Shown one piece after another: positions 31,050 through 58,560 of a stretch of DNA of 64,000 bases. Source of the DNA: an uncultured Chlorobiaceae bacterium (lineage in GTDB: Bacteria > Bacteroidota > Ignavibacteria > UBA10030 > SZUA-254); the NCBI GenBank assembly GCA_964596065.1, contig CAZQSM010000002.1:10361-74360 (forward strand), in the 5' to 3' direction. The position numbers were made by a program, and so were the translations under genes. A model generated the notes under the pieces. The model was not told the DNA's origin. It saw only the letters and a list, made by a program, of their open reading frames with translations, and ran no database searches. Positions within the stretch are counted from its first letter, which is position 1; the number at the start of each line of letters is the position of its first letter.

Positions 31050-33323
31050 ATGGCATCATCCAAAGAACACACCCATCTCGAGTTTCGGGGCTTCCTGCGG
31101 CAGGCGGACAAGTTTCTCGCCGAGGCAAGGTTCACTGAGGCGAAGGAGGAGCTTGAAAAAGCAAGGAAGCTCGATCCCGCGAATCCATTCATCCGCGCGT
31201 TCGACGAGCGGATCTCGCTCTTCGAGGTAAAGTCCAAAACCGCCGCCGGAGACGAACAGCCCGTGGGGGGCTCCGGGAGGGACGCGAAACCAGCCGCGCC
31301 ACCCCCCGGCCGCGCCCGCAGCGCCGCAGAAGTCGGGGGGCCGGAGCCGGGCGTCCCGCCGGAGGTGCGGATGGGGGTGGAGGAGGAAATCAGGCGGAAA
31401 TATACCGAGGAGGTGCGGAGAGCCGAGGAACGCGCCGCGAAGCTGGTGGCCGAGGAGAAGGAGCTGCTGGAGAAAAATTTCCTGAAGCAGCGGCTCGAAA
31501 ACGAACGCGAATTCGACAAGGTCAAGCAACGCTACGAAAAGGAATACCAGGAACGGCTCGCCACCGAGATCCGGAAGACGGAGATGCGGCTGGAGGGGGA
31601 ATACCAGTCGGAGCTCGCACGCCTGGAGGGGGACCTGCGCACGAAACTCCACCAGCAGTTCCAGGCCGACCTGGTCGAAGAAAAGGAGCGGTTGAAGAAT
31701 GAACTGCGCGGTCTCGCCGACAAGGAACGGCATTCGGCGGCCGAGATGGAGCAGGGGCTCCGCGCGGCGTTCGAGGCGCGGCTCGCTGAAGAGCTGGAAA
31801 AAGCCGGGATGGAACTCCGGCTGCAGCTGCAGGAAACGCACCGCCGTGAGGAGGAGAAGCTCAAGATCACGCTCACGGAGGAATTTGAAAACCGGCTGAC
31901 CTACGAGCGCGACAAGATGAAGGAAGAGTTCGACAAGCAGCGGAGGAAGGGGGACGACCTCCACCGGATCGAACTCTCAAAGGCGCGCCAGGCACAGGAG
32001 GAACTCGAGAAGAAGATGCGGGACGAGTTCAACCGGAGGCTCCTTGAATCGGTCAGGAAGGCCGAAGTGGTGTACGAAGAACAGGCGGCGCTCCGGCTGA
32101 AGGAGGAGCGGGAAAAACTCAGGCACCAGCTCGAAGGGGAGTTCCGCGCGGAACTCGAGCGTGAACGCAATGCGCTCAGGGTGGAGTACGAAAAACTGAA
32201 GGCGTCGCTCGAAGCCTCCGCCGACGACGAATCCGCCGGGGTCAGGCAGCAGGCGGAGGCGCGGATCCGCGACCAGGTCGACGCGGCGAAAAAGCAGCTC
32301 GAGGAGGAACTCGGGCGCCGGTCGACGGCCCTGCGCAACGAGCTGGAATCGAAGTACCAGATCGAGTACGAGGCGAAGCTCCACGACGAACGGGAGAAGA
32401 TCAGGAAGGACGCCGACCTGAAGATCGAAGCCGAGACGGCGCGCCTCGACGCCGGGTTCCAGGCGAAGATCCGCGAGCAGGAGGAAAAGCTCAAGGCCGT
32501 CCGGAAGGAGCTTCGGGCCAGGATGGACGAGGAGCTGCTCCGGCGGATGGAATCGATGGCGTCCGACTACGAGACGAAACTCGACCTGCTGGGCGTGCGA
32601 CTCCCCGAAACCCGCGCGGAGCAGATGCACCACTACCGGGAGGCGATGCTGGCCCGGTACGCGAAGGGGGCCCTCGACGTGGAGGACGCGAAGAAGCTCC
32701 TCCAGCTGAAGGAAATGCTGGGGCTGACGTTCGACGACCACCTGGTCATCGAGGGCGAAGTGCGGTTGAAAACGTACTCCGACCGGATCCGGCAGCTCGT
32801 CGTCTCGGGCGCCCTGGACCCTGAAGACGAGGTGGCGCTCGGGAAGCTCAAGGAGAAATACGACATCACCGAGGAGGAATCGAAGACGCTCGAACACCAC
32901 CTGCTGGCGAGCTTCGGCAAGCTGCGCGTGAAGGGCCGGCTGATGGTGGCGGACGACGATCAGCTGCTCCTGAGGACCCTCGAGGACATCCTGGGCGACG
33001 CGGGGTATGCCGTGGTCACGGCGCCCGACATCGAAACCGCCATCGCACACCTGAAGACGACGCCGTTCGACCTGATCCTCAGCGACATCAAGTTCTCGGA
33101 CAACGAATTCGAGGGGTTCGCCTTCTTCAAGCAGGTCCAGGGCATCCCGCCGTACGCCGGCATTCCGTTCATCTTCATGAGCGCGCTCTCCGACGGCGTG
33201 ATCGTGAGGTCGGGAATCCAGCTCGGGGTGGACGATTACCTCACCAAGCCGATCGAGCCGGAACTCCTCCTCGCCGTGGTCGAGGGGAAGCTGAAGCGCT
33301 TCCGCGCGATGAAGCTCCAGTGA
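31050..33323 (+). CDS. 757-aa protein: N-terminal TPR-like helix pair, about 550-aa charged coiled-coil, C-terminal response-regulator receiver (REC) domain
   Basis: Residues about 120-600 are a continuous E/K/R/L heptad-like region. The last about 125 aa carry REC signatures: acidic pocket ADDD, phospho-acceptor LILSDIKF, MSALSD, YLTKP. Confidence 0.7.
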   Translation: MASSKEHTHLEFRGFLRQADKFLAEARFTEAKEELEKARKLDPANPFIRAFDERISLFEVKSKTAAGDEQPVGGSGRDAKPAAPPPGRARSAAEVGGPEPGVPPEVRMGVEEEIRRKYTEEVRRAEERAAKLVAEEKELLEKNFLKQRLENEREFDKVKQRYEKEYQERLATEIRKTEMRLEGEYQSELARLEGDLRTKLHQQFQADLVEEKERLKNELRGLADKERHSAAEMEQGLRAAFEARLAEELEKAGMELRLQLQETHRREEEKLKITLTEEFENRLTYERDKMKEEFDKQRRKGDDLHRIELSKARQAQEELEKKMRDEFNRRLLESVRKAEVVYEEQAALRLKEEREKLRHQLEGEFRAELERERNALRVEYEKLKASLEASADDESAGVRQQAEARIRDQVDAAKKQLEEELGRRSTALRNELESKYQIEYEAKLHDEREKIRKDADLKIEAETARLDAGFQAKIREQEEKLKAVRKELRARMDEELLRRMESMASDYETKLDLLGVRLPETRAEQMHHYREAMLARYAKGALDVEDAKKLLQLKEMLGLTFDDHLVIEGEVRLKTYSDRIRQLVVSGALDPEDEVALGKLKEKYDITEEESKTLEHHLLASFGKLRVKGRLMVADDDQLLLRTLEDILGDAGYAVVTAPDIETAIAHLKTTPFDLILSDIKFSDNEFEGFAFFKQVQGIPPYAGIPFIFMSALSDGVIVRSGIQLGVDDYLTKPIEPELLLAVVEGKLKRFRAMKLQ

Positions 33324-38189: not shown

Positions 38190-39386
38190 ATGATCTCCGC
38201 GGAACAGGCACGATCGACGATCCTCGAACGGGTTCCCGTACTCGGCCCGGTGTCGCTCTCCGTCAGGAGGGCCGGCGGTCACCGCCTCCACGGGGACCTT
38301 GCCGCCCCGGTGAACGTGCCGCCGTTCGATAATTCGGCCATGGATGGTTATGCCGTCCGATCGGGGGACCTCCGGGACACGCCCGTCCTGCTGGCGATCG
38401 CGGGAGAGACGGCCGCCGGGTCCGGTCCCGGCGAGCCCCTCGCGCGGGGGACGGCGCGGGCCGTCATGACCGGGGCGCCCATCCCTCCGGGGGCCGACGC
38501 CGTCGTCCAGATCGAATGGACGGAACGGGCTTCGGACCGGGAGGTCCGCGTCCTCAGGAACGTCGCGGCGGGGGCGAACGTCCGCAGGGCCGGATCGGAC
38601 ATCCCCGCGGACAGGATCGCCCTCGCCGGGGGGACGCTGGTGGGGCCCTTCGAGCAGGGGATGCTCGCGTCGCTGGGGGTGGAATTCGTAACGGTCCACC
38701 GCCTTCCATCCGTCCGTTTCATCCCGACCGGGAACGAGCTCACGCCTCCGGGGACGCCACTCGGGCCCGGGAAGATCCGGGAATCCAACTCGCACGTCGT
38801 GGCGGGGCTCCTGCGCCGGGAGGGGTGCGATGCGCGGATCGACCCCATCGTCGCGGACGATCGCGGAAGTCTCGCCGCCGCGTTCGCGGCGCGTCGCGGC
38901 GATGACGCGCTGCTCATCAGCGGCGGGGTCTCGGCGGGACGATTCGACATCGTGCCCGACGCGCTCGCCGCCGCCGGGGTCGAGATCGTTTTTCACAGGG
39001 TGAACATCAAACCGGGGATGCCCCTCCTCTTCGGGATGCGCGGGGACACGCCGGTGTTCGCGCTCCCCGGTAACCCGGTATCGGCCGCGGTCACCTTCCT
39101 CCAGTTCGTGAGGCCGGCGGTCAGGAAGTTGTCGGGGGACCCCGACCCGGGCCGCCGGGAAACGGTCCGGGCCAGGCTCGCGGACAGCATCGTGAAGAAG
39201 GACGGCAAGCGCCATTTCCTCCGGGGCCGGCTCGAGCGCTCCGACGGGGAATTGAGGGTGCGCCTGGCGGGGCCGCAGGGTTCGAACGTCGCGTCGGGAC
39301 TCGCGGCCGCCGACTGCCTCGTCATCCTTCCCGAGGAGAGGTCGGAATTCGGCAGGCTGGACATCATCGAAGCGGAGATGCTGTGA
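38190..39386 (+). CDS. moeA: molybdopterin molybdotransferase
   Basis: MoeA N-terminal domain (PPFDNSAMDGYAV), MoCF-biosynthesis domain (LLISGGVSAGRFD) and C-terminal domain. Confidence 0.85.
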   Translation: MISAEQARSTILERVPVLGPVSLSVRRAGGHRLHGDLAAPVNVPPFDNSAMDGYAVRSGDLRDTPVLLAIAGETAAGSGPGEPLARGTARAVMTGAPIPPGADAVVQIEWTERASDREVRVLRNVAAGANVRRAGSDIPADRIALAGGTLVGPFEQGMLASLGVEFVTVHRLPSVRFIPTGNELTPPGTPLGPGKIRESNSHVVAGLLRREGCDARIDPIVADDRGSLAAAFAARRGDDALLISGGVSAGRFDIVPDALAAAGVEIVFHRVNIKPGMPLLFGMRGDTPVFALPGNPVSAAVTFLQFVRPAVRKLSGDPDPGRRETVRARLADSIVKKDGKRHFLRGRLERSDGELRVRLAGPQGSNVASGLAAADCLVILPEERSEFGRLDIIEAEML

Positions 39387-39631
39387 GCGGAATCAGGGTC
39401 CGGCTGTTCGGGAGCGTGAAGGAGATCGTCGGCTCCGGGGAGATCGAGGTGTCCGCGGCGCCCGGGGCCACCACCGGGAGCCTCCTCGCCGGACTGATCG
39501 ACGCCCATCCGCGCCTCGCACCCTGGAAGGAGTACCTCCGGGTCGCGGTCAACCAGGAATACGCGCCCGTCGAGGCGCCGGTCGCGCCGGGCGACGAGGT
39601 CGCCGTCATCCCCCCGGTGAGCGGCGGATAA
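39383..39631 (+). CDS. moaD: molybdopterin synthase sulfur-carrier subunit
   Basis: 82 aa, ThiS/MoaD fold ending in the diglycine VSGG. GTG start overlaps the moeA stop. Confidence 0.7.
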   Translation: MSGIRVRLFGSVKEIVGSGEIEVSAAPGATTGSLLAGLIDAHPRLAPWKEYLRVAVNQEYAPVEAPVAPGDEVAVIPPVSGG

Positions 39632-39632
39632 G

Positions 39633-40049
39633 GTGCCCTCCCACGCGGTGGACATCGTCGAGACGGCGCTCGACGCCGGCGAAATCCTCTCACGGGTCGC
39701 GGACCCGGCGGCGGGCGGCACGGCACTCTTCGTCGGCACCACCCGGACCCCCTCGAACGACAGGGCGGTGCGGCACCTGGAGTACGAGGCGTACCGGCCG
39801 ATGGCGCTGAAACAGATGGAGGCCATCGTCGGGGCGGCCATGTCGCGCTGGCCCCTCGTCCGCGTCTGCGCGATCCACAGGGTCGGCAGGGTGGGGGTGG
39901 GCGAGGCGAGCGTCGTGATCGCCGTGTCGGCGGCGCACCGGGGCGCGGCCTTCGAGGCCTGCCGCTACGTCATCGACGCCGTCAAAAAGGACGTGCCGAT
40001 CTGGAAGAAGGAAGTGTTCGCGGACGGGCACGAGTGGGTGGGTCCGTAA
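39633..40049 (+). CDS. moaE: molybdopterin synthase catalytic subunit
   Basis: ALFVGTTR ... HRVGRVGVGEASVVIAVSAAHR ... VPIWKKE are conserved MoaE blocks. Confidence 0.8.
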   Translation: MPSHAVDIVETALDAGEILSRVADPAAGGTALFVGTTRTPSNDRAVRHLEYEAYRPMALKQMEAIVGAAMSRWPLVRVCAIHRVGRVGVGEASVVIAVSAAHRGAAFEACRYVIDAVKKDVPIWKKEVFADGHEWVGP

Positions 40050-40202
40050 AAAAATCGAGCCCGACGCTTTCACGCGCCGGGCTTTCCCCTAACACGACAG
40101 TAAGCTGCGGAGGAACAGCTTACACAGACAATGTACGGAGAAGGACCGGAAGCATGATGTGTCCTGCGTCACAAATCTCACTTTTTTCAACGGCGTGAGC
40201 CG

Positions 40203-41198
40203 ATGCACCGCGACCGATTGATCGATTCGTTCGGGAGGGTCATCGACAATGTCCGCATTTCGGTGACGGACAGGTGCAATTTCCGCTGCCGGTACTGCAT
40301 GCCGGAGGCGGGGATGATCTGGCTCGACCACGCCGAAATCCTCACCTACGAGGAGATCGGGCGGCTGGTCCGGATCCTGGCCGGCATGGGGGTCAGCAAG
40401 GCGAGGCTCACCGGGGGTGAACCGCTGATGCGGAAGGAACTCCCGCTGCTGGTACAGCGCCTCTCGGCCATCGAAGGGCTCGACGACATCGCCCTCACCA
40501 CCAACGGGTATTTCCTCGCCGAACAGGCGGCCCCGCTCGCCCGCGCCGGCCTGCGCCGGATCAACGTCAGCCTCGATTCGCTCGACCCCGTCACCTTCGA
40601 GGCGATGGCGAGGCGCAATTACCTCGACCGGGTCCTCGCCGGCATCGAGGCCGCCCACGGGTGCGGCCTCGGGCCGCTGAAGCTGAACGTCGTGCTGATC
40701 AGGGGCGTGAACGACGGCGAGGTCGCCGGATTCGCGGAGCTGGCCCGCTCCCGCCCGTACGTCGTGCGATTCATCGAATTCATGCCGATCGGCAGCGACG
40801 ACGGCTGGTCGAACGACCGCGTGGTCACCACCGCGGAGGTGCTCGCCGCCCTCCGGCGCCTCGGGTATGCAACCGTCCCGATCGGCGGCGACGGAACCCA
40901 TCCCGCGGACCGCTACCGGTTCGCCGACGGCAGGGGGGAGCTCGGGTTCATCAGTTCGGTGTCCCAGCCGTTCTGCGGTTCGTGCAACCGGATCCGGATC
41001 ACCTCCGACGGGAAATTGCGCACGTGCCTCTTTTCCCTCATCGAGACAGACCTCCGGGGACCGCTCCGCGGCGGCGCGGAGGACGGGGCGATCGGGGAGA
41101 TCATCCGCGCGGCGGTCGCCGCGAAGGAGGAGGGACACCTGATCAACCGTTCCGAATTCGAGCGGCCGGGAAGAACGATGAGCAGCATCGGAGGGTAG
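40203..41198 (+). CDS. moaA: GTP 3',8-cyclase (radical SAM)
   Basis: CNFRCRYC radical-SAM cluster, GGEPLMRKEL, C-terminal CxxCxnC (CGSCNRIRITSDGKLRTC). Confidence 0.9.
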   Translation: MHRDRLIDSFGRVIDNVRISVTDRCNFRCRYCMPEAGMIWLDHAEILTYEEIGRLVRILAGMGVSKARLTGGEPLMRKELPLLVQRLSAIEGLDDIALTTNGYFLAEQAAPLARAGLRRINVSLDSLDPVTFEAMARRNYLDRVLAGIEAAHGCGLGPLKLNVVLIRGVNDGEVAGFAELARSRPYVVRFIEFMPIGSDDGWSNDRVVTTAEVLAALRRLGYATVPIGGDGTHPADRYRFADGRGELGFISSVSQPFCGSCNRIRITSDGKLRTCLFSLIETDLRGPLRGGAEDGAIGEIIRAAVAAKEEGHLINRSEFERPGRTMSSIGG

Positions 41199-41199
41199 C

Positions 41200-42150
41200 G
41201 TGAAATCCACATCCGCGACGAGGGACGTTTCCGACAAGCCGGTCACGCTGCGCATCGCGAGGGCGGTCGCACGCGTGATCGCCCGGCCCGCGACGATGAG
41301 GGCGCTCAGGGCCGGCGCGACGCCGAAGGCCGATCCGATCGGCGTCGCGAAGGTGGCGGCCATCCAGGCCGCCAAGGAGACGAGCCGTCTCATCCCGTTC
41401 TGCCACCAGGTCCCGATCGACGGGATCAGGGTGTCGATCGTTCCGGGCCGCGTCGGGATCGACATCGAGACGGAAGTGACCGCCATCTGGAGGACCGGCG
41501 TCGAGATGGAAGCGCTCGTCGCGGCTTCGGCCGCTGCGCTCACGCTCTATGACATGCTCAAGCCGATCGACGCGGCGCTCGAGATCCGTGAGATCCGGCT
41601 CGCCGGCAAGACGGGCGGAACATCGAACGCGGTGCCGGGTCTCGCCCCCGGGAGGCAGGCCTCCGCGGGAAGGGGCATCCGGGCCGCGGTCCTGGTCATG
41701 AGCGATTCGATCAGCGCGAAGCGCGCGCGCGACCGTTCGGGGAAACTGCTCGTGGAACGGCTCAGGGGGTGGGGCGCGGCGGTCCCCGTCTACCGCGTCC
41801 TGCCGGATGATCGGGGCGCGATCTCGCGCGCCCTCAGGGAACTCTGCGACAGGCGGCGCGTCGACCTGGTCATCGCGTCGGGAGGGACCGGCATCGGCCC
41901 GCGCGACGTGACCGCCGAGGCGATCACCGACGTCATCGACCGGCGCCTGCACGGCGTGGAATCGGCCTTCCTCGCGCACGGACAGGAACGGGTCCGCACC
42001 GCGATGCTCTCCCGCTGCGTGGCGGGGACCAGGAAGGGGTCGCTGATCGTGGGGATCCCCGGGTCGGCCTCGGCCGCCGGGGACGCCGCGAGCGTGCTGT
42101 TCCCCGCGATCTTTCACGCCTTTCCGATCATGAAGGGAGGAGGACACTGA
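41200..42150 (+). CDS. moaC: bifunctional cyclic pyranopterin monophosphate synthase MoaC fused to MoaB/MogA-type molybdopterin adenylyltransferase
   Basis: N-terminal half has MoaC blocks (KGDPIGVAKVAAIQAAKETS.LIPFCHQ, ASAAALTLYDM). The C-terminal half has the MoaB/MogA fold (AAVLVMSDS..., GGTGIGPRD). Confidence 0.8.
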   Translation: MKSTSATRDVSDKPVTLRIARAVARVIARPATMRALRAGATPKADPIGVAKVAAIQAAKETSRLIPFCHQVPIDGIRVSIVPGRVGIDIETEVTAIWRTGVEMEALVAASAAALTLYDMLKPIDAALEIREIRLAGKTGGTSNAVPGLAPGRQASAGRGIRAAVLVMSDSISAKRARDRSGKLLVERLRGWGAAVPVYRVLPDDRGAISRALRELCDRRRVDLVIASGGTGIGPRDVTAEAITDVIDRRLHGVESAFLAHGQERVRTAMLSRCVAGTRKGSLIVGIPGSASAAGDAASVLFPAIFHAFPIMKGGGH

Positions 42151-50620: not shown

Positions 50621-51228
50621 CGCCGCTTCCGACCGCGCTGCTCCTGAGGGCCTACTCGGAAGGGTTCTTCCCGATGGCCGATCCGCTGGACGGGCGGATC
50701 GGGTGGTATTCGCCCGATCCCAGGGCGATTATTCCGCTCGACGCGTTCCGTATTTCACGGAGTCTGCGAAGGGCCGTGGAGCGGAAGGTCTTCGCGGTCA
50801 CGACCGACCTCGATTTCCCCGCGGTGATCACGCGCTGCGCCGGCCGCCCCGAGACCTGGATCTCGCGTGACATCGAGGCGGCCTACACAACGCTGTGGCG
50901 GGAGGGCCACGCACACAGCGTGGAATGCCGTTCCGGCGGGGAACTCGCGGGCGGCCTCTACGGCGTCTCCCTCGGAGGGGCCTTTTTCGGGGAATCGATG
51001 TTCAGCCTGCGTCCCGACGCCTCCAAGGTCGCCCTGGTCCATCTCGTAAGGATGCTCCGCGAGGGGGGATTCACCCTCCTCGACGTCCAGTACCCCACCC
51101 CCCACCTGGAGCGTTTCGGGGCGGTCGAAATACCGCGGACCCGTTATCTCGCGCTCCTGGCCGATTCCCTTCAAAAAACCGCGAAATTTCAATCCCCCGG
51201 CATCATCCCCGGGGATCCCGATGGTTGA
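50617..51228 (+). CDS. aat: leucyl/phenylalanyl-tRNA--protein transferase
   Basis: LLRAYSEGFFPM...WYSPDPRAIIPLD...ISRSLRR and GGLYGVSLGGAFFGESMF align with Aat. Probable TTG start overlapping the pfkA stop; the alternative ATG is at 50674. Confidence 0.7.
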   Translation: MTPLPTALLLRAYSEGFFPMADPLDGRIGWYSPDPRAIIPLDAFRISRSLRRAVERKVFAVTTDLDFPAVITRCAGRPETWISRDIEAAYTTLWREGHAHSVECRSGGELAGGLYGVSLGGAFFGESMFSLRPDASKVALVHLVRMLREGGFTLLDVQYPTPHLERFGAVEIPRTRYLALLADSLQKTAKFQSPGIIPGDPDG

Positions 51229-51284
51229 CACTCTGGATATTAATCGGTAATTTGCCACATTCCCGTACGATTATTCCATCGGAA

Positions 51285-51635
51285 ATGATCATCGAAGAAA
51301 CCAGTGTCGGTGGCGTCGACGTGTTTCGGCTCAAGGGTGATTTCATCAGCGAACCCGACCAGACGAAATTCCAGCAGAAGGTCAGAGACCTCGTCCACGG
51401 GGGAGTCACCAGGCTGGTCGTGGACCTGCACGACGTCCATTACATCAACAGTTGCGGTATCGGTTCCCTCGTCGGGGCCCTGACGACCCTCCGCCGATCG
51501 GGCGGCGACATCCACCTCGCCGAAACCACGCGCGAGGTCAGGAGCGTCTTCGAAACCGCCCAGCTCGAACTGATATTTCATTTTCATTCCACCGTCCAGG
51601 ACGCCATCGGCGCCATCGGTCGGAAGACCCTTTAA
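51285..51635 (+). CDS. STAS-domain anti-sigma-factor antagonist (SpoIIAA/RsbV-like)
   Basis: 116 aa; LVVDLHDVHYINSCGIGSLVGA with the phosphorylatable Ser in the NSCG context typical of anti-anti-sigma factors. ATG at codon 131 of ORF 50895..; TTGACA hexamer about 55 nt upstream. Confidence 0.65.
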   Translation: MIIEETSVGGVDVFRLKGDFISEPDQTKFQQKVRDLVHGGVTRLVVDLHDVHYINSCGIGSLVGALTTLRRSGGDIHLAETTREVRSVFETAQLELIFHFHSTVQDAIGAIGRKTL

Positions 51636-51733
51636 CCAGCCACCGGGGGAGAACCACCCGCGGTCCATCATCGGTCCATTGTCCCCGGACGGGTCCGGGG
51701 GCCGGCCATTTCGTTCCCGCATCGAGCATCGGC

Positions 51734-52138
51734 ATGGAGAAAAAGTTCAGCAAGGATTTCGGTTCCCTCGACCGGATCGACGCGTTCGTCAGGTCGTTCG
51801 CGGCCGGACGCGGCCTCGACGAGGGCACCGTGTTCACGCTCAATTTCGTAATCGAGGAGATCTTCACCAACATGGTCAAGTACCAGCCCACCGCCGCGAA
51901 TGACGTCCTGATCGGACTCTCGATCGACGGCGGTTCGGTTACCGTCAAGATGGTCGACTACGGGGTGCGATACTTCGACCCGACGTCCGCTCCCCCGGTC
52001 GACACCGGGAAACCGCTCTCGGAGAGGCGCCCGGGCGGCCTCGGCGTCCACCTGGTGAAGCAGTACATGGACGACTTCAATTACGAGTATGTGGGTTCCG
52101 ACAGCATCATCACACTGACAAAAAAACTGAAGGTTTAG
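51734..52138 (+). CDS. anti-sigma regulatory factor, RsbW/SpoIIAB-like serine kinase (HATPase_c_2)
   Basis: 134 aa; NFVIEEIFTNMVKY (N-box) and GGLGVHLVKQYMDDFNY (G-box) of GHKL ATPases of the RsbW type. Confidence 0.6.
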   Translation: MEKKFSKDFGSLDRIDAFVRSFAAGRGLDEGTVFTLNFVIEEIFTNMVKYQPTAANDVLIGLSIDGGSVTVKMVDYGVRYFDPTSAPPVDTGKPLSERRPGGLGVHLVKQYMDDFNYEYVGSDSIITLTKKLKV

Positions 52139-52139
52139 C

Positions 52140-52424
52140 ATGTTCGACGCGACAATACCGGGGGAGGGACGGATCCTGCTCTCCGGACGATTTGATGCGG
52201 CCCAGGTCGAGAAGGCGAGGGCCGTCTTCGACCTGGTGAACGTCCATACGGTGGTGGATTTCGCCCAACTCGATTATATCTCGAGCGCCGGACTCGGGAT
52301 ACTCCTGATGACCCAACGGCGCCTGAAGGAGTCGGGGACCGGCCTGAAGCTGATCAACATGAACAAGCATATCAGGGACGTCTTCCAGTACGCGGGTTTC
52401 GACAAGATTTTTGAAATCGCTTGA
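52140..52424 (+). CDS. second STAS-domain anti-sigma-factor antagonist
   Basis: 94 aa; VDFAQLDYISSAGLGILL with the conserved Ser in the DxISSAG context. Starts 1 nt after the kinase stop. Confidence 0.6.
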   Translation: MFDATIPGEGRILLSGRFDAAQVEKARAVFDLVNVHTVVDFAQLDYISSAGLGILLMTQRRLKESGTGLKLINMNKHIRDVFQYAGFDKIFEIA

Positions 52425-52521
52425 AAAAAGTCCGTTATCCGGCCCGTTTTGGCATGTTTAAGCGCCCGGGAGGATGTTTCGGCGGAGATCCCAACTTTTT
52501 CCCTGATCGCCTGTACTTCCA

Positions 52522-53055
52522 ATGACCGAAGACCAGACACTGGTCCGGCGATACCTCGGCGGAGAGCGCGGGGCCTTCGAACCCCTGGTGGACCGGTACC
52601 AGAAGACGATCTACAATGTCGCGCTCCGGATGGCCCGCGATCCGGACGACGCCGCGGACATCACGCAAAACGTCTTCATCAAGGCGTCGGAAAAACTGGG
52701 GAGTTACGATCCGAAGTACAAGTTTTTCAGCTGGATCTACAGGATCGCGGTCAACGAGTCGCTGAATTTCGTCGGGTCGAAGCGGAGGAACGACGAATTG
52801 CCGGAGGACCTGGTCTCCGGCGAGGGCAATCCGGAAGAGATGCTCCAGGCGGGGATGCTTTCACACTCGGTCGAGGAAGGGCTCGCGAAACTGACCGACG
52901 ACAACCGGATCGTGATCATCCTCCGCCACTTCGAAGAGCTGTCGTACGACGAGATCGGCTTCATCCTCGACCTGCCCGTGAAAACGGTCAAATCGCGGCT
53001 CTTCACGGCGAGGCAATCACTGAAAAAAATTTTATTACAGAAATTCGAACAATGA
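52522..53055 (+). CDS. RNA polymerase sigma-70 factor, ECF subfamily
   Basis: Region 2 (YQKTIYNVALRMARDPDDAADITQNVFIKA) and region 4 HTH (LSYDEIGFILDLPVKTVKSRL). Confidence 0.85.
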   Translation: MTEDQTLVRRYLGGERGAFEPLVDRYQKTIYNVALRMARDPDDAADITQNVFIKASEKLGSYDPKYKFFSWIYRIAVNESLNFVGSKRRNDELPEDLVSGEGNPEEMLQAGMLSHSVEEGLAKLTDDNRIVIILRHFEELSYDEIGFILDLPVKTVKSRLFTARQSLKKILLQKFEQ

Positions 53056-54434
53056 AACCAACGGATTATCGGGAACTGGTCTACCGGGAACTCGACGGGG
53101 ACCTCACGCCGGAGGAGTCGGCGAAGCTCGGGGAGATGCTCGCCTCCGATCCGGAAGCGCGCATGTTCCACGACGAATGCCGCTCGATGTTCGCGATGCT
53201 GCGGGAAATCCCCAGGCGGGAGCCGTCGTCCCAGTTGAAGAAGAAGATCCTCAACAGCATTAAACCGCCGGCGCCCACTCGCCGGCATTCCATCATTCAC
53301 ACAATCACATCAACATTCACTTTTTCACAATATCAGGAGGTCGGTATGAAAAACAAGCTCATCATCGGCGGAGCGCTGGCCGCGGTCGCGGTCCTCTACT
53401 TCGCGGTTCTGTATCCCTGGCCGTCGGAATCCGAACTGTTCGGGACCATCGGCGGGGCCAAGAAATACCGTTCCGAGCAGATCGCCGACAAGGACGTCGT
53501 CCTGGAAGGGCAGGAAAACTCGACAGACGGTTCTTCGGGCGGATCGGCAAACGACGGCGGCCTCGGCCGCTCGGCGGAAGTCTTCCGCAGCGCGGACGTG
53601 CAGAAGCTCGCGGAGATCGCCCGCACCGCCGACGTGCAGAAGCTCGCGGAGATCGCCCGCACCGCCGACGTTCAAAAGCTGGCGGCGATCGCCCGCACGG
53701 CGGACTACTACCGCACGGCCGACGTCCAGAAGCTCGCGGAGATCGCGCGCACGGCCGACGTCCGGAAGTTCGCGGAGATCGCGCGCACGGCCGACGTCCA
53801 GAAACTCGCGGAGATCGCGCGCACGGCTGACGTCCAGAAGCTCGCGGATATCGCCCGCACGGCGGATTTCTACCGTACCGCGGACGTCCAGAAACTCGCG
53901 GCCATTGCCCGCACGGCTGATGTCCAGAAGCTGGCGGAGATCTCCCGCACCGCCGATGTCCAGAAAATGGCGGACATCGCGCGCACGGCCGACGTGCAGA
54001 AGCTTGCCGAGATCGCCCGCACGGCCGACGTGCAGAAGCTGGCCGAGATCGCCCGGACCGCGGACTTCTATCGCACGGCCGACGTGCAGAAGGTTGCCGA
54101 CATCGCCCGCACGGCGGATGTCCAGCGCATGGCGGACGTCGCCCGCACGGCGGATGTCCAGCGGATGACGGCCATCGCCCGCACGGCCGACGTGCAGAGG
54201 CTCGCCGACATCGCCCGCACCGCCGAGGTCTACCGCACGGCCGACGTGCAGAAGCTGGCGGAGATCGCGCGCACGGCGGATGTCCAGCGCATGGCGGACA
54301 TCGCCCGTACGGCGGACGTCCAGCGGATGACGGCCATTGCCCGCACGGCGGACCTTCAGAAGCTCGCGGAAATCGCGCGTACGACCGACATCCAGAAGAT
54401 GGCGGATATCGCCCGCTCCGCTTCCCACGAATAA
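53052..54434 (+). CDS. single-pass anti-sigma factor with tandem-repeat extracytoplasmic domain
   Basis: ATG overlaps the sigma-gene stop (ATGA). N-terminal 98 aa resemble an anti-sigma N-terminal domain (YRELDGDLTPEESAKL..FHDEC, degenerate zf-HC2). TM helix at residues 100-121. Residues 181-456 are 21 copies of ARTADVQKLAEI plus 4 AD(Y/F)YRT hexamers. Confidence 0.65.
   Translation: MKPTDYRELVYRELDGDLTPEESAKLGEMLASDPEARMFHDECRSMFAMLREIPRREPSSQLKKKILNSIKPPAPTRRHSIIHTITSTFTFSQYQEVGMKNKLIIGGALAAVAVLYFAVLYPWPSESELFGTIGGAKKYRSEQIADKDVVLEGQENSTDGSSGGSANDGGLGRSAEVFRSADVQKLAEIARTADVQKLAEIARTADVQKLAAIARTADYYRTADVQKLAEIARTADVRKFAEIARTADVQKLAEIARTADVQKLADIARTADFYRTADVQKLAAIARTADVQKLAEISRTADVQKMADIARTADVQKLAEIARTADVQKLAEIARTADFYRTADVQKVADIARTADVQRMADVARTADVQRMTAIARTADVQRLADIARTAEVYRTADVQKLAEIARTADVQRMADIARTADVQRMTAIARTADLQKLAEIARTTDIQKMADIARSASHE
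53592..54419 (+). repeat. in-frame 36-bp tandem repeat array (21 units) with four 18-bp punctuation units, coding ARTADVQKLAEI
   Basis: The period-36 repetition is directly visible in the sequence (gcccgcacggccgacgtgcagaagctcgcggagatc, etc.). Units differ mainly at synonymous third positions. Mirror ORFs on the minus strand are artefacts of the repeat. Confidence 0.9.
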
Positions 54435-54461
54435 CAGACGGCATCCCGACCGACGGTCGGA

Positions 54462-54492
54462 GGGGGGACGCCCGGCGTCCCCCCTTTTTTTT
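54462..54492 (+). terminator. rho-independent terminator downstream of the anti-sigma gene
   Basis: GGGGGGACG-cccgg-CGTCCCCCC stem-loop (9-10 bp G/C stem) immediately followed by T8. Lies 28 nt after the stop codon and only about 35 nt before the next ATG. Confidence 0.75.
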
Positions 54493-54527
54493 GCCCCCCT
54501 TTGGCATTTTTTTTAATATATTCACGA

Positions 54528-57509
54528 ATGCGTTTCACCATTTCCGTGGGCCGGATATCGGCCCGTCTGCGATTCGGCCTCCTGCTCCTGTCCGCCGCCG
54601 CGTCGGCGCCCGTCGGCGGGCCGCTCAGGGCCCAGTTCACGACGCTCGAGACGGAGCGCCAGCGCCTGATCTGGTACGACCCGGGCATCGACTACCTGAT
54701 CCCCCACGCGGCGCGGACCTTCGAGAACGCGATGACCTTTCACATGCGATTGTTCGACTATGAGCCGTCGGAGAAGGTCAGCGTCTTTCTCCACGATTTC
54801 AACGACTACGGCACGGGCGGGACGAGCACCATCCCGTGGAATTTCCTCAATATCGGCGTCGAGCCGTATGATTACGTCTACGAGACGGCCCCCACGAACG
54901 AGAGGATGAACTGGGTCTTCAACCACGAACTGGCCCACCTGGTCGCGGTGGACAAGCCCGCCGGCAGCGACCGCTTCTTCCGGTCGGTCTTCTTCGGGAA
55001 GGTGCTCCCGGTGGCCGAGAACCCCGTTTCGATGTTCTACAGCTTCCTGACCAACCCGCGATGGTATTCCCCCAGGTGGTACCACGAGGGGATCGCCACC
55101 TTCCTCGAGACCTGGATGGCCGGCGGCATCGGCAGGGCGCTCGGCGGTTACGACGAGATGATGTTCCGGACGATGGTGGCCGATTCCACCTACTTCTACG
55201 ATTTCGTCGGGATCGAGTCGGAGGGGACGACGATCGATTTCCAGATCGGGGCCAACGCGTACCTCTACGGGACCCGCTTCGTCAGTTACGTGGCGCTGAC
55301 GCGCGGGCCTGAAAAAATCCTGGAGTGGTTCAACCGGTCGGAGGGGAGCTCCGCCTACTTCGCCTCGCGGTTCGAGCAGGTCACGGGGAGCTCCCTCGAC
55401 GACGAATGGTCGCGCTGGATAGAGTTCGAGAAACGGTGGCAGCGCGCGAACCTCGATTCGGTGGGGACCTATCCCCTCACGCCGTACCGCGTGATCTACG
55501 ACGGCGTCCTCGGCTCAGTCTCGCGTCAATTCTATGATTCGGCGGCCGGTGAAATCTATTGCGCCGTCAATTATCCGGGCGCCACCGCCCACATCGCCGG
55601 GATCGACGTGGGGAGCGGGACGAAAGAGGCGCTCGTCGACGTCGAGACCCCGACCCTCTACTATGTCACGTCCATCGCCTACGATCCGGTACTCCGCAGG
55701 ATCTACTACACCACCGATAATTCCCGCTACTGGCGGGACATCAGGGTCCTCGACCTGAACACCGGCGACGACCGGAAGCTCTACAACGACGTCCGGACCG
55801 GGGACCTGGTCGTCAACCCGGCCGACCGGTCGCTCTGGGGGGTCCAGCACAACCGGGGAATCTCGAAGGTCGTCAGGATGCCCGACCCGTACACCCACCA
55901 GTACGAGGTCCTCGAGCTCGCCTACGGCAACGACCTCTTCGACCTCGACATTTCCCCCGACGGGAGGACGCTGATGGGGGTGCTGCTGGAGATCAACGGG
56001 CGGCAGAAGCTCGTCAGGATGGAGATCGATTCACTCGTCGCGGGCGTCCGCTCCCACGAGACGATCTACGAATTCGAGAACAACTCGCCGGCGAATTTCG
56101 TCTTTTCCCCGGACGGGAAGTCGGTCTACGGCACCTCGTACTACACCGGGGTGTCGAACGTGTTCAGGATCGACCTGGAGACGAAAAAACTCGACGCCCT
56201 CACGAACGCGGAGACCGGGATGTTTCGTCCCATCCCGTACACCGCGGATTCGATCATCGCATTCCGGTATTCGGGGAAGGGATTCATCCCGGTGGCGATC
56301 CCCATCCGGCCGACGGAGGACATCGCCCCGATCCGGTACCTCGGCCAGCAGATCGTCGAGCAGCACCCGGTCGTCACCACGTGGAAACTCGAACCCCCCA
56401 ACCCGCAGCGGATCAACATCGACTCGCTCACGATCTCCAGGGGCGAATACGACGGGCTGGGCGGCCTGCGCGTCGCCTCGGTCTACCCGATCGTGCAGGG
56501 ATACAAGGACGTCTACGCGCTCGGATTGACGGCGACGATCTCCGATCCGCTGCCGGTCCATTATTTCCTCCTGACGGGGTCGTGGTCCCCCAACCGCGAC
56601 CTGCCGGCGAAGGAACGGTTTCACGGTTCGGCGGAGTATTTCTACCAGACCTGGAAATTCGGCGCGGGGTACAACACCGCGGATTTCTATGACCTCTTCG
56701 GTCCCACCAAATCGAGCCGAAAGGGGTACACAGCGTCGATCGGCTACAGCCGGACAGTCTTCGAGGAGCGGCCCCGTTCGTTCGACTACGGCCTCACCCT
56801 GTCGGGCTTCTCGGACCTTGACCGGCTGCCCGACGCCCAGAACGTCACCCCGACGGTCGACCGGTTCCTCAGCCTCGGCCTGAGGCTCAATTATACGGCG
56901 TTGATGCGGACGCTCGGCGCCAACGATCACGAGCGGGGAATCAAGGCCACGCTCAACCTCAGCAGCAAGTACGGGACGAAGAAGTACTTCCCCAGGGTCC
57001 ATGCCACGTTCGATTACGGGCTGATCCTCTGGCAGCATTCGTCGCTCTGGTTCCGGACGTCGGCGGGCAATTCGTTCGGAGACCGTTCGAACACGCTGGC
57101 GAATTTCTACTTCGGCGGTTTCGGCAACAACTGGGTGGACCACGGCGAGGTGCGGCGGTACCGGGACTATTACAGTTTCCCGGGCGTCGAGATCAATGAT
57201 CTGGGGGGAAGCAACTTCGCCAAACTCACGCTCGAGTGGGACCTCCCGCCGATCCGCTTCAGGCGGGTGGGACTGCCCGCGGCCTACGCCAACTGGGCGA
57301 GGGTGGCGCTGATCTCCACCGGACTGGTGACGAACCTCGACGATGAGTCGCTGCGCCAGCGCGCGCTGAGCGTGGGGGCGCAGCTGGACCTCAAGCTGGT
57401 GTTGTTCTCCAACCAGGAATCGACCCTTTCAGGCGGCTTCGCGGCTGCCTTCCGGCCCGACCAGCGGCGCACGAGGGAGTGGATGGTGTCGCTGAAAATC
57501 CTCCGGTGA
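54528..57509 (+). CDS. 994-aa secreted protein: N-terminal HExxH (gluzincin-like) module, central PD40/TolB-like beta-propeller repeats, C-terminal beta-rich (outer-membrane-barrel-like) region
   Basis: Signal peptide MRFTISVGRISARLRFGLLLLSAAASAPVGGPLRAQ (ATG 54528; the TTG at 54501 proposed by the ORF caller was rejected). WVFNHELAHLVAVD HExxH with a downstream WYHEGIATFLE candidate third ligand. SPDGRTLMGV and FSPDGKSVYGT propeller blades. Last about 350 aa show alternating hydrophobic patterns. Confidence 0.55.
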   Translation: MRFTISVGRISARLRFGLLLLSAAASAPVGGPLRAQFTTLETERQRLIWYDPGIDYLIPHAARTFENAMTFHMRLFDYEPSEKVSVFLHDFNDYGTGGTSTIPWNFLNIGVEPYDYVYETAPTNERMNWVFNHELAHLVAVDKPAGSDRFFRSVFFGKVLPVAENPVSMFYSFLTNPRWYSPRWYHEGIATFLETWMAGGIGRALGGYDEMMFRTMVADSTYFYDFVGIESEGTTIDFQIGANAYLYGTRFVSYVALTRGPEKILEWFNRSEGSSAYFASRFEQVTGSSLDDEWSRWIEFEKRWQRANLDSVGTYPLTPYRVIYDGVLGSVSRQFYDSAAGEIYCAVNYPGATAHIAGIDVGSGTKEALVDVETPTLYYVTSIAYDPVLRRIYYTTDNSRYWRDIRVLDLNTGDDRKLYNDVRTGDLVVNPADRSLWGVQHNRGISKVVRMPDPYTHQYEVLELAYGNDLFDLDISPDGRTLMGVLLEINGRQKLVRMEIDSLVAGVRSHETIYEFENNSPANFVFSPDGKSVYGTSYYTGVSNVFRIDLETKKLDALTNAETGMFRPIPYTADSIIAFRYSGKGFIPVAIPIRPTEDIAPIRYLGQQIVEQHPVVTTWKLEPPNPQRINIDSLTISRGEYDGLGGLRVASVYPIVQGYKDVYALGLTATISDPLPVHYFLLTGSWSPNRDLPAKERFHGSAEYFYQTWKFGAGYNTADFYDLFGPTKSSRKGYTASIGYSRTVFEERPRSFDYGLTLSGFSDLDRLPDAQNVTPTVDRFLSLGLRLNYTALMRTLGANDHERGIKATLNLSSKYGTKKYFPRVHATFDYGLILWQHSSLWFRTSAGNSFGDRSNTLANFYFGGFGNNWVDHGEVRRYRDYYSFPGVEINDLGGSNFAKLTLEWDLPPIRFRRVGLPAAYANWARVALISTGLVTNLDDESLRQRALSVGAQLDLKLVLFSNQESTLSGGFAAAFRPDQRRTREWMVSLKILR

Positions 57510-57534: not shown

Positions 57535-58560
57535 ATGAACATGGTTTCCGCCGACAGGCTCCTCGACATCGCGGTGAGCGTGCTCCCCGTGTTCCTCTTC
57601 CTCCTTGCCCTGGTGTTCCTCGACAGTTACAAGCTCGTGAAGGTCCACGAGGTGGCGGGGACCATCATCTTCGGGGCGCTCTCGGCGGTCGCGGCCCTCT
57701 TCCTGAACACGTTCATCGCCCAGTATGTGCCGAGGGGCATGCACATCATGCCCCGGTACGTCGGGCCGGTCACCGAGGAGGTCCTCAAGGCGGTGTTCGT
57801 GGTCTACCTCATCCGCAGCGGCAAGGTGGGGTTCATGGTGGACGCGGCGATCCACGGCTTCGCCGCCGGCGCCGGGTTCGCGTTCATGGAGAACGTCTAC
57901 TACCTCCAGACGGTCGGGGGGAGTTCCACCATGGTGGTATGGCTGATCCGCGGCTTCGGGACGGCCGTGATGCACGGCGGCACGGCGGCGATCATGGCGA
58001 TCATCGTGAAGAGCCTCGCCGACCGCTCCCCGTCGCCCCGGCTCTGGCACCTGGCCCCGGGCGCCGGCGCCGCGATGCTGCTCCATTCCTTTTTCAATCA
58101 TTTCCCCCTTCCGCCGCAGTTCATGACGGCGTTCCTGCTCGTCTCGCTGCCGCCGATCATGGTGTGGGTCTTCCACCGGAGCGAGAAGTCGACACGCGAG
58201 TGGCTCGGGGTCGGCTTCGACACCGATGCCACGCTCCTGGAAGCCGTGAACACCGGGGAGGTTTCCCGCACGAAGGTGGGGGAATACCTGGAGACCCTGA
58301 AGGCCAAGTTTCCGGGGGAGCTGGTCGCCGACATGCTCTGCATGCTGCGGATCCACCTGGAGCTCTCCATCCGGGCCAAGGGGGTCCTGCTGATGCGAGA
58401 GCACGGGTTCGAGTCGAAACCGGAGCCGGACACCGCGGAAAAGTTTTCGGAGCTGGACTATCTCGAGAAGAGCCTCGGCAAGACGGGGATGATGGCGATC
58501 AAGCCCTTCCTCCATACCACCTCCAGGGACCTGTGGCAGCTCTATTCGATCGGCCGATGA
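57535..58560 (+). CDS. prsW: PrsW-family intramembrane metalloprotease
   Basis: Polytopic; conserved PrsW blocks EExxK (VTEEVLKAV), FxxxH/FAFMEN (IHGFAAGAGFAFMENVYY) and HGGTAAIMA; long cytoplasmic C-terminal tail. Confidence 0.7.
   Translation: MNMVSADRLLDIAVSVLPVFLFLLALVFLDSYKLVKVHEVAGTIIFGALSAVAALFLNTFIAQYVPRGMHIMPRYVGPVTEEVLKAVFVVYLIRSGKVGFMVDAAIHGFAAGAGFAFMENVYYLQTVGGSSTMVVWLIRGFGTAVMHGGTAAIMAIIVKSLADRSPSPRLWHLAPGAGAAMLLHSFFNHFPLPPQFMTAFLLVSLPPIMVWVFHRSEKSTREWLGVGFDTDATLLEAVNTGEVSRTKVGEYLETLKAKFPGELVADMLCMLRIHLELSIRAKGVLLMREHGFESKPEPDTAEKFSELDYLEKSLGKTGMMAIKPFLHTTSRDLWQLYSIGR

Follow-up and report, generated by a model that had tools for sequence, protein, structure and literature searches.

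Results

A partner-switching-type trio precedes an ECF sigma factor gene

We analyzed a 64,000-nucleotide stretch of DNA from an uncultured Chlorobiaceae bacterium (GenBank assembly GCA_964596065.1, contig CAZQSM010000002.1), referred to here, at its full length, as the window. Nearly all of its genes are on the plus strand. Our subject is a set of three adjacent genes that encode two STAS proteins (STAS1 and STAS2) and, between them, an RsbW-like serine kinase, located directly upstream of a sigma factor gene of the extracytoplasmic function (ECF) type (Table 1). A reading made from the sequence alone had described this trio as a partner-switching module without a cognate group-3 sigma factor. 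We scanned every plausible gene of the window against Pfam. The scan agreed with the sequence-only reading on the composition of the trio: at the coordinates in Table 1, on the plus strand, lie two Ser-bearing STAS genes and one RsbW-like kinase gene. The three open reading frames (ORFs) are intact and have a coding-type GC content at third codon positions (GC3). The gene model was reproduced by independent gene calls on related contigs, and the proteins are 70 to 88% identical within the window's clade.

Table 1. Features of the locus, with coordinates in the window
Feature	Coordinates	Strand	Details
Probable housekeeping-type promoter of the STAS1-kinase-STAS2 unit	51225-51253	+	TTGACA-N17-TAATTT; assigned from conservation
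STAS1, anti-sigma-antagonist-like	51285-51635	+	116 aa; PF01740; candidate phospho-site Ser56 (INSCGIG)
RsbW-like Ser kinase/anti-sigma-type GHKL protein	51734-52138	+	134 aa; PF13581 (HATPase_c_2)
STAS2, core antagonist of the cassette	52140-52424	+	94 aa; PF13466; candidate phospho-site Ser49 (YISSAGLG)
Putative autoregulatory promoter motif, ECF type	52491-52515	+	CCAACTTTTT-N11-CTGTA; ends 6 nt before the ECF ATG
ECF sigma factor, RpoE/AlgU/SigW-like	52522-53055	+	177 aa; Sigma70_r2 (E = 4.7e-15), r4_2 (E = 7.3e-13); regions 2 and 4 only
Membrane anti-sigma-like protein	53052-54434	+	overlaps the sigma factor gene (ATGA); transmembrane segment; weak anti-sigma matches
Strong intrinsic-terminator-like hairpin and T-run after the anti-sigma gene	54459..54497 (hairpin, 54459-54487)	+	13-bp stem, 9 GC pairs
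~1,000-aa secreted protein, cassette core component	54501-57509	+	HExxH...E zincin motif; PD40 beta-propeller; Omp85-like C-terminal barrel
PrsW-family intramembrane protease	57535-58560	+	PF13367; 127-aa charged C-terminal extension

The kinase and both STAS proteins retain the residues of a switch

The kinase matches PF13581 with an E value of 3e-17 (63.3 bits against a cutoff of 27.4). Its closest relative among solved structures is Bacillus subtilis RsbW (6m36; E = 6e-8), followed by SpoIIAB (~2e-3). It misses the curated NCBIfam RsbW and SpoIIAB equivalogs, scoring 21.8 bits against a required 145 for NF003144, 21.8 against 135 for TIGR01925, and 19.8 against 155 for TIGR01924. Judged by its sequence, the kinase is RsbW-like but belongs to a separate clade, marked by the motif EE[IL]FTNMVKY. 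Many of its homologues are likewise about 134 aa long, and an exact-sequence look-up of the window kinase returned no matching record. The protein is a single GHKL domain with the N-box, the ATP-binding Asp, and the G2 box of RsbW/SpoIIAB-type kinases. Across 108 kinase domains, E42, N46, G101, and G104 are present in all 108, R98 is present in 106, and D75 and G102 are each present in 104. We take the E42/N46 region (the Mg/ATP-binding N-box), D75 (the adenine-binding Asp), and the G2 box to be the features of a GHKL kinase.

The stop codon of the kinase gene and the start codon of STAS2 are 1 nt apart; the spacer between STAS1 and the kinase gene is 98 nt. STAS2 matches PF13466 (STAS_2; E = 1.8e-12; 47.7 bits) and STAS1 matches PF01740 (E = 2.1e-15; 56.8 bits). 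On TIGR00377, which has a cutoff of 53.45, STAS2 falls just short (47.8) and STAS1 passes (55.7 bits). Both have the form of STAS-only antagonists, that is, one STAS domain carrying a Ser two residues before a G-[LI]-G turn. The two Ser contexts had been read as NSCG and SSAG, and the translations bear this out (...HYINSCGIGS... around S56 of STAS1 and ...DYISSAGLGI... around S49 of STAS2). The STAS2 block L-x-Y-I-S-S-A-G, which includes S48-S49-A-G, is conserved in 76 of 77 sequences; within the STAS1 family, Ser56 is kept in 9 of 9 and the adjoining Cys57 in 8 of 9. From a manual alignment with SpoIIAA (D57-S58-S59-G-L-G), we take S56 and S49 to be the phospho-site equivalents. Since the N-box, the Asp, the G2 box, and both serines are nearly invariant, the kinase and its STAS substrates look functional.

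The kinase and STAS2 are linked to an ECF cassette in many phyla

Relatives of the window kinase were collected by scanning one genome per species. At least 432 species genomes have such a relative, and the best 80 of the 432 loci were examined; window proteins were compared with all ORFs of the kinase-anchored loci. Loci from the collection scan are numbered L001 to L160; with L161 to L165, there are 165 loci in all, of which L001 to L005 and L161 to L165 belong to the window's clade. Of the 71 kinase loci whose sequence continues for 1.2 kb or more past the kinase, 68 (96%), spread over many phyla, have genes for STAS2, the ECF sigma factor, and the anti-sigma factor after the kinase gene in conserved order. 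Among the 38 loci whose downstream flank reaches 7.9 kb or more, the ~1,000-aa protein is present in 37 and PrsW in 34. The order of the cassette is [GAF-PP2C], kinase, STAS2, ECF promoter, ECF sigma factor, anti-sigma factor (plus a repeat/transmembrane protein), ~1,000-aa protein, and PrsW. It occurs in Ignavibacteriota, Bacteroidota, Calditrichota, Zixibacteria, Eisenbacteria, Latescibacterota, Acidobacteria, KSB1, and Beta- and Gammaproteobacteria, among others. Because the kinase-STAS2-ECF order is kept across phyla, we conclude that the ECF sigma factor is not a chance neighbor.

A reciprocal scan of metagenomes used the first 400 aa of the ~1,000-aa protein as its anchor, and 80 of at least 592 relatives were examined. 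Of the 28 metagenome loci whose upstream flank was 5.5 kb or longer, 19 had the kinase and/or STAS2. Gene arrangement differs among the loci. Layout A is window-like. In layout B, STAS2 and the kinase are on the opposite strand, divergent from a run of ECF sigma factor, anti-sigma factor, ~1,000-aa protein, PrsW, and PP2C genes. Layout C has the order PrsW, ECF sigma factor, anti-sigma factor, transmembrane protein, and ~1,000-aa protein, with kinase-STAS2 upstream of PrsW in some loci (L139 and L147). Linkage that survives rearrangement argues for function. The view that the module lacks a cognate system and merely lies upstream of an ECF gene is not supported, given that kinase-STAS2-ECF-anti-sigma is a conserved unit.

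Two loci appeared at first sight to pair the kinase with a stand-alone PrsW tail. In L032 (8404-8841) and L051 (8487-9278), an ORF starts with the N-terminal ~22 residues of STAS2 and continues in frame into the C terminus of PrsW (its last ~120 residues in L032 and ~42 in L051); the core of ECF, anti-sigma, and ~1,000-aa protein genes is gone and the kinase is left. We rejected these ORFs as support for a kinase-PrsW contact, as they are deletion scars. In two Ignavibacteriales/Bacteroidota loci (L045, 2699-3445; L071, 7194-7976), the gene immediately preceding the kinase encodes a DUF6901 protein (E about 1e-81).

A PP2C phosphatase accompanies the kinase in other lineages

No PP2C/SpoIIE phosphatase was found in the 64-kb window, either by the Pfam scan or with a profile built from related PP2Cs. 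A profile search of 80 related genome loci found a GAF-SpoIIE PP2C that adjoins the kinase or is fused to it in 35. In beta- and gammaproteobacteria, a GAF-SpoIIE-HATPase_c_2 protein of ~570 to 610 aa has the kinase as its C-terminal domain (Pfam, L033), and PP2C-fused kinase domains make up 17 of the 108. In other phyla, the PP2C is a separate gene directly upstream of the kinase (L021, L050, L056, and L075). Thus, a fused PP2C-kinase with a GAF rather than a REC input is found in these relatives, and the window kinase stands alone. A PP2C that adjoins or is fused to the kinase completes an RsbU/RsbW/RsbV-type switch in many lineages. In the window's clade, the phosphatase is probably encoded elsewhere in the genome.

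STAS1 is a lineage-restricted second antagonist

The sequence-only reading treated the trio as the basic unit. The wider comparison revises this: the core is the kinase with STAS2, joined by a GAF-PP2C in many lineages, and just 13 of the 160 collection-scan loci (~8%) have a STAS1-type protein. A database search for close homologues of STAS1 gave 33 proteins, all of ~116 aa and at least 60% identical, and those inspected share the same synteny. In the window's clade this synteny is rigid, running from an AddB-like gene through PFK, Leu/Phe-tRNA transferase, STAS1, kinase, STAS2, and ECF sigma factor genes onward, with STAS1 occupying the slot held by PP2C in other lineages. Outside that clade, STAS1 is usually accompanied by one or two PP2Cs, as in L050 (PP2C-STAS1-PP2C-kinase-STAS2) and L075. 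The low number of loci, together with few close homologues whose inspected members lie in one synteny, indicates that STAS1 is a lineage-restricted second antagonist.

Two STAS proteins per kinase have precedents: mycobacterial RsbW/UsfX has RsfA and RsfB, and chlamydial RsbW has RsbV1 and RsbV2 (PMC8256260). By analogy with these pairs, STAS1 may be a clade-specific second antagonist with a separate input. In those systems, as here, one kinase/anti-sigma factor is paired with two STAS proteins that differ around the phospho-site and are thought to receive separate inputs. Those systems differ from the window in that their targets are SigF or sigma-66; in the window, the Ser is kept in each of the two STAS proteins, STAS1 is confined to the small fraction of loci given above, and it lies on the opposite side of the kinase from STAS2.

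A doubled switch lies upstream of the ECF gene in a Chlorobiaceae-labeled metagenome-assembled genome (L056, 2124-8694). The order there is a 1,056-aa PP2C protein, a second, weak kinase homologue, a STAS1-like protein, a second PP2C, and then kinase-STAS2-ECF, which suggests a cascade like that of RsbT/RsbS feeding RsbU.

The sigma factor probably belongs to a proteolysis-type ECF system

The best PDB matches of the ECF sigma factor are AlgU (6in7), SigW (5wuq), and RpoE (1or7), all of which are controlled through anti-sigma proteolysis. That the sigma factor has its own membrane anti-sigma factor, as previously claimed, is upheld by the ATGA overlap, the transmembrane segment, and weak matches to anti-sigma profiles (NF052375, E = 2.5e-5; PRK13920, E = 1e-4). 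The anti-sigma-like protein has a cytoplasmic N-domain of ~100 aa, one transmembrane segment (residues 103 to 121), and a periplasmic repeat domain. Similarity of the N-domain to RsiW (5wuq_C) is weak (E = 0.24) and colinear over residues 5 to 67. The periplasmic repeats are about 24 copies of a 36-nt (12-aa) unit, RTADVQKLAEIA, at 53556-54421. In most other loci, the anti-sigma N-part and the repeat/transmembrane protein are encoded by separate genes, and in the window they are fused. The repeat domain also has a higher-order periodicity of 162/198 nt, with RTAD(Y/F)YRTAD units interspersed, and its sole Pfam match is a sub-threshold "LED repeat." The repeat/transmembrane protein, where it is a separate gene, has its own copy of the ECF promoter motif described below.

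The ~1,000-aa protein is conserved across phyla with phmmer E values from 0 to 1e-250. Residues H142, E143, H146, and E196 of its zincin motif are invariant in 14 sequences from several phyla. Pfam gives weak PD40 and Omp85_2 matches and no family above threshold. The extended motif reads NHExxH...WYxEGxAxFxE, the propeller is PD40/TolB-like, and the first 400 residues are 43 to 81% identical from Ignavibacteria to Proteobacteria. The protein consistently co-occurs with PrsW. The true start is probably the ATG at 54528, which gives a signal-peptide-like N terminus.

The PrsW homologue matches PF13367 over residues 40 to 211 (E = 2.4e-21; 76.6 bits against a cutoff of 23.5). The NCBIfam PrsW profile covers residues 13 to 211 only, and the equivalog is missed (25.8 against 225). 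Residues 215 to 341, the 127-aa charged tail, lie outside the canonical PrsW profile and are conserved in all cassette types. The tail is probably cytoplasmic, as basic residues begin it after the last hydrophobic segment (positive-inside rule). Among the conserved cassette proteins, PrsW alone has a soluble domain of appreciable size that is probably cytoplasmic.

The window thereby contains the parts of a class-I ECF system: a sigma factor with regions 2 and 4, an ATGA-coupled single-pass anti-sigma factor, and a candidate site-1 protease. The closeness of the sigma factor to AlgU, SigW, and RpoE, the weakly RsiW-like N-domain, and the presence of PrsW together point to an ECF sigma factor controlled by proteolysis.

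The switch genes lie outside the putative ECF-dependent unit

The 97-nt spacer between STAS2 and the ECF gene carries the ECF-type motif listed in Table 1, which occurs once in the window (0.00 occurrences expected by chance). In 54 genome loci, the motif, in the form CCAACTTT-N11-14-YGTA, immediately precedes the ECF gene, and ~25 loci have a second copy right before the gene that follows the anti-sigma gene. It was matched in 79 of the 165 loci, always on the cassette strand, and is present in rearranged cassettes. In the loci examined, variants that lack the ECF gene do not have it, and it is never located ahead of the kinase, PP2C, or STAS1 gene. A spacing of AAC-N16-(C/T)GT is typical of ECF promoters. 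The motif is probably the autoregulatory promoter of the sigma factor, and its position, with an end 3 to 8 nt short of the ATG, suggests that the mRNA may be leaderless or nearly so.

Upstream of STAS1, the sequence TTGACA-N17-TAATTT probably acts as a promoter: both hexamers and the intervening block are invariant in six sequences (the window and five relatives), and the flanks drift. A consensus promoter scan missed it. The TAATTTG at this site also fits a Bacteroidota-type -7 element. STAS1, kinase, and STAS2 appear to form a separately, probably constitutively, expressed unit that feeds into the ECF system rather than being driven by it. The ECF-type motif precedes the ECF gene and never the switch genes, and a separate sigma70-like promoter lies upstream of STAS1; this argues that the switch is an upstream input and not a member of the regulon. 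The arrangement is therefore not that of a sigma-B or sigma-F operon, with its co-encoded, autoregulating group-3 sigma factor, as the switch genes are upstream of the ECF motif.

No group-3 sigma factor recurs beside the module

A Pfam scan of plausible genes detected no second sigma factor in the 64-kb window, and hence no group-3 sigma factor, in line with the sequence-only reading. That reading further held that the ECF sigma factor is the only one within at least 25 kb on either side. This stands for the upstream side, where 51 kb were scanned; the downstream side is covered for only 11.6 kb. No recurrent group-3 sigma factor was found within 8 to 10 kb in the 160 collection-scan loci. 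The sole non-ECF sigma factor in this set is a primary-sigma-like gene of 279 to 323 aa, with regions 1.2, 2, 3, and 4, in three Rhodothermales-type loci (L032, 6872-7843; L037, 5129-5968; L047, 6945-7784). We considered this sigma factor, encoded directly upstream of the kinase, as the missing cognate and rejected it as a general partner, as the remaining 157 of the 160 loci lack it. It is nearly identical in the three and resembles the short primary sigma factor of Bacteroidota-type organisms.

Other genes in the window

Three further regions of the window are noted here. A 757-aa protein (31050-33323) has a C-terminal receiver (residues 632 to 744) as its sole recognizable domain; its 630-aa N-terminal part is without a Pfam match and has an unusually low GC content at second codon positions (0.34). 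A compact molybdenum-cofactor cluster (38190-42150) encodes MoeA, a MoaD/ThiS-like protein, MoaE, MoaA, and a MoaC-MoCF_biosynth fusion. MoaA and the MoaC fusion, with RmuC, Sua5, and the AddB-like gene, are syntenic in the window's clade. A 725-aa ORF (12877-15054) has the unusual combination of an S15 X-Pro dipeptidyl-peptidase domain followed by His_Phos_1.

Discussion

The sequence-only reading was right to find the locus unusual, but we read it best not as a switch without a sigma factor but as one that serves a widespread ECF/proteolysis cassette. We consider it highly probable that the module belongs functionally to the neighboring ECF cassette. It is somewhat less certain, though we favor it, that the trio serves as the partner-switching arm, in the cytoplasm, of a multi-phylum ECF envelope-signaling cassette. 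Direct binding of the ECF sigma factor by the kinase is a tentative proposal, with the balance somewhat against it; the direct target of the switch could be the ECF sigma factor, the anti-sigma factor, or PrsW.

In the mechanism that we propose, the kinase would phosphorylate STAS2 on Ser49 and, in the window's clade, STAS1 on Ser56. A GAF-SpoIIE phosphatase would dephosphorylate the STAS proteins when its signal is present, and unphosphorylated STAS would sequester the kinase. The state of the kinase and STAS proteins would then alter the amount of free ECF sigma factor. In the simplest version, the kinase would be a soluble second anti-sigma factor that buffers basal sigma factor and gates positive autoregulation. 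The extracytoplasmic input would be PrsW-type proteolysis of the membrane anti-sigma factor, triggered via the large outer-membrane protein and the periplasmic repeat domain. The analysis establishes what the genes encode, which residues are conserved, the synteny, the PP2C fusion, and where the promoter motif lies; we infer the protein-protein contacts and the direction of control.

Several observations weigh against this mechanism. Of the 28 metagenome loci, 6 have the ECF cassette without kinase or STAS2 within 6 to 10 kb (some of layout C; L134 was inspected). Conversely, a further arrangement, layout D, is without the ECF and anti-sigma genes and has the order kinase, STAS2, PrsW, transmembrane protein, REC-PP2C, and ~1,000-aa protein (L152, L156, and L160). 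Layouts C and D indicate that the ECF pair and the switch can each do without the other. A second anti-sigma factor is not required, because the ECF sigma factor has a co-translated membrane anti-sigma factor. The amount of kinase cannot track induced sigma factor as RsbW tracks sigma-B, because the kinase gene is outside the autoregulated unit. A mirror-tree comparison of 48 loci (partial Mantel, controlling for the ~1,000-aa protein) gave partial correlations of 0.39 between the kinase and ECF trees and 0.34 between the kinase and PrsW trees; both are significant and do not discriminate between the two partners. Finally, no RsbW-type protein is known to bind an ECF sigma factor, and the literature searched describes none.

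Layout D has features of its own. The contigs (e.g., L156, 5353-12877) are low in GC, the PP2C before the ~1,000-aa protein is of the response-regulator type (REC-SpoIIE), and the promoter motif is absent.

The main rival explanation, which we consider unlikely, is that STAS is the output: STAS2, in either phosphorylation state, would bind the anti-sigma N-domain or the PrsW tail and so release the sigma factor or gate site-1 proteolysis, and the kinase and PP2C would merely set the phosphorylation state. HsbA, for example, binds FlgM, and the beta/gammaproteobacterial kinase-phosphatase fusion has the layout typical of HsbR/SypE-type systems, in which STAS carries the output. SypE/SypA and PA3347 are examples (PMC8256260). 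The ECF-less variants keep kinase-STAS2 next to a PrsW with its extra soluble tail, and the CapK/CapS and VapK/VapS kinase-STAS pairs use STAS as the effector of the adjacent operon (PMC13373217). However, the positive-inside rule is the only basis for placing the PrsW tail in the cytoplasm, the tail is also found in cassettes without an adjacent kinase or STAS2, and the apparent kinase-tail pairs of L032 and L051 are the deletion scars described above.

A related idea, which we regard as rather improbable, is that the Ser phosphorylation switch (GAF- or REC-PP2C, kinase, and STAS) gates intramembrane proteolysis, with STAS2 or the kinase docking on the PrsW tail. A cytoplasmic metabolic signal would then decide whether an envelope signal, sensed via the zincin/propeller/barrel protein and the periplasmic repeat protein, may destroy the anti-sigma factor, and in the ECF-less variants the switch-plus-protease core would drive another output.

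It is quite improbable that the module acts on a target elsewhere, either a group-3 or primary sigma factor or a non-sigma protein (as BtrW/BtrV and RbaV/RbaW do), with the linkage reflecting shared physiology or co-inheritance. Retention of kinase and STAS2 by ECF-less cassettes fits this idea, as does the primary-sigma-like gene directly upstream of the kinase in the three Rhodothermales-type loci. In Chlamydia, RsbW reportedly acts on the primary sigma factor, and the Bordetella Btr switch, beside btrS, acts on secretion (PMC8256260). However, the extra sigma factor is limited to one lineage (3 of 160 loci), and the linkage to the ECF gene, in 96% of kinase-anchored loci, survives changes in gene order. 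Many of the host phyla found here (Bacteroidota and relatives) are generally without group-3 sigma factors, which also counts against a target elsewhere.

We think it very improbable that the trio is a decaying remnant, an ATP-binding-dead pseudo-kinase with relic STAS proteins beside an ordinary ECF system: some genomes do have deletion scars in which the kinase is left and most of the cassette is gone, and the window has no PP2C, but across 77 to 108 homologues there is hardly any variation in the N-box, the Asp, the G2 box, or the two serines, and the ORFs are intact, coding-type in GC3, and conserved within the clade.

The preferred reading, a switch dedicated to the ECF cassette, places the locus among several known systems. 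The cassette resembles the B. subtilis sigma-B module (RsbU/RsbV/RsbW) in its PP2C (in relatives), STAS, and kinase types, in the conserved STAS phospho-Ser, and in having RsbW as the closest solved relative of the kinase. It differs in that the neighboring sigma factor is an ECF rather than a group-3 protein, the switch genes are outside the sigma-dependent unit, the PP2C has a GAF input, and the kinase is far below the RsbW equivalog cutoffs. HsbR/HsbA-FlgM of Pseudomonas aeruginosa, CrsR/CrsA-RpoS of Shewanella, and SypE/SypA of Vibrio share with the proteobacterial relatives a PP2C-HATPase_c_2 polypeptide beside a STAS-only protein; their output may be an anti-sigma factor (through HsbA) or a sigma factor (through CrsR). 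In contrast, the input in the cassette is GAF and not REC, the partner is an ECF/anti-sigma pair, and the window kinase is stand-alone.

On the envelope side, the cassette shares with B. subtilis SigW/RsiW/PrsW a SigW/RpoE-like ECF sigma factor, a single-pass anti-sigma factor with a weakly RsiW-like N-domain, and a clustered PrsW-family protease. Differences are the 127-aa PrsW tail, the added HExxH/propeller/barrel and repeat proteins, the attached partner switch, and the Gram-negative hosts. The Bordetella locus btrS-btrU-btrW-btrV likewise has an ECF gene adjoining PP2C, RsbW-like, and STAS genes. The Btr proteins, which are encoded in a type III secretion locus, control secretion and not the activity of BtrS (PMC8256260); the btr locus is without PrsW, a membrane anti-sigma factor, or the ~1,000-aa protein, and its gene order differs. 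CapK/CapS and VapK/VapS are alike in having an RsbW-like kinase and STAS protein just upstream of the operon that they control, with the conserved STAS Ser as the switch (PMC13373217). Unlike the STAS-only proteins here, whose output is presumably via the sigma factor system, CapS has a DNA-binding wHTH, CapK has HTH and STAS, and the operons are immune operons.

In the main text of the ECF reclassification, PhyR/NepR/EcfG (ECF15) figures as the one partner switch established to control an ECF sigma factor (PMC7826278). It uses a sigma-mimic response regulator and a small anti-sigma factor and is without STAS, GHKL kinase, or PP2C. The conserved neighbors named in that main text are anti-sigma factors, extensions, two-component systems, Ser/Thr kinases, and TetR; RsbW/STAS/PP2C modules are not among them (PMC7826278). 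A review of STAS-only proteins makes no mention of ECF sigma factors (PMC8256260), and we found no description of this cassette within the literature searched.

RsbW/RsbV/PP2C switching and anti-sigma proteolysis, treated as separate textbook routes, are physically joined in this cassette. The cassette offers two mutable serines, a defined promoter motif as a reporter, and natural variants that lack each part. If the coupling is functional, the cassette would be a compact natural ECF system that integrates a cytoplasmic signal (the GAF ligand) with an envelope signal, and the target range of RsbW-type or STAS proteins would extend to ECF systems.

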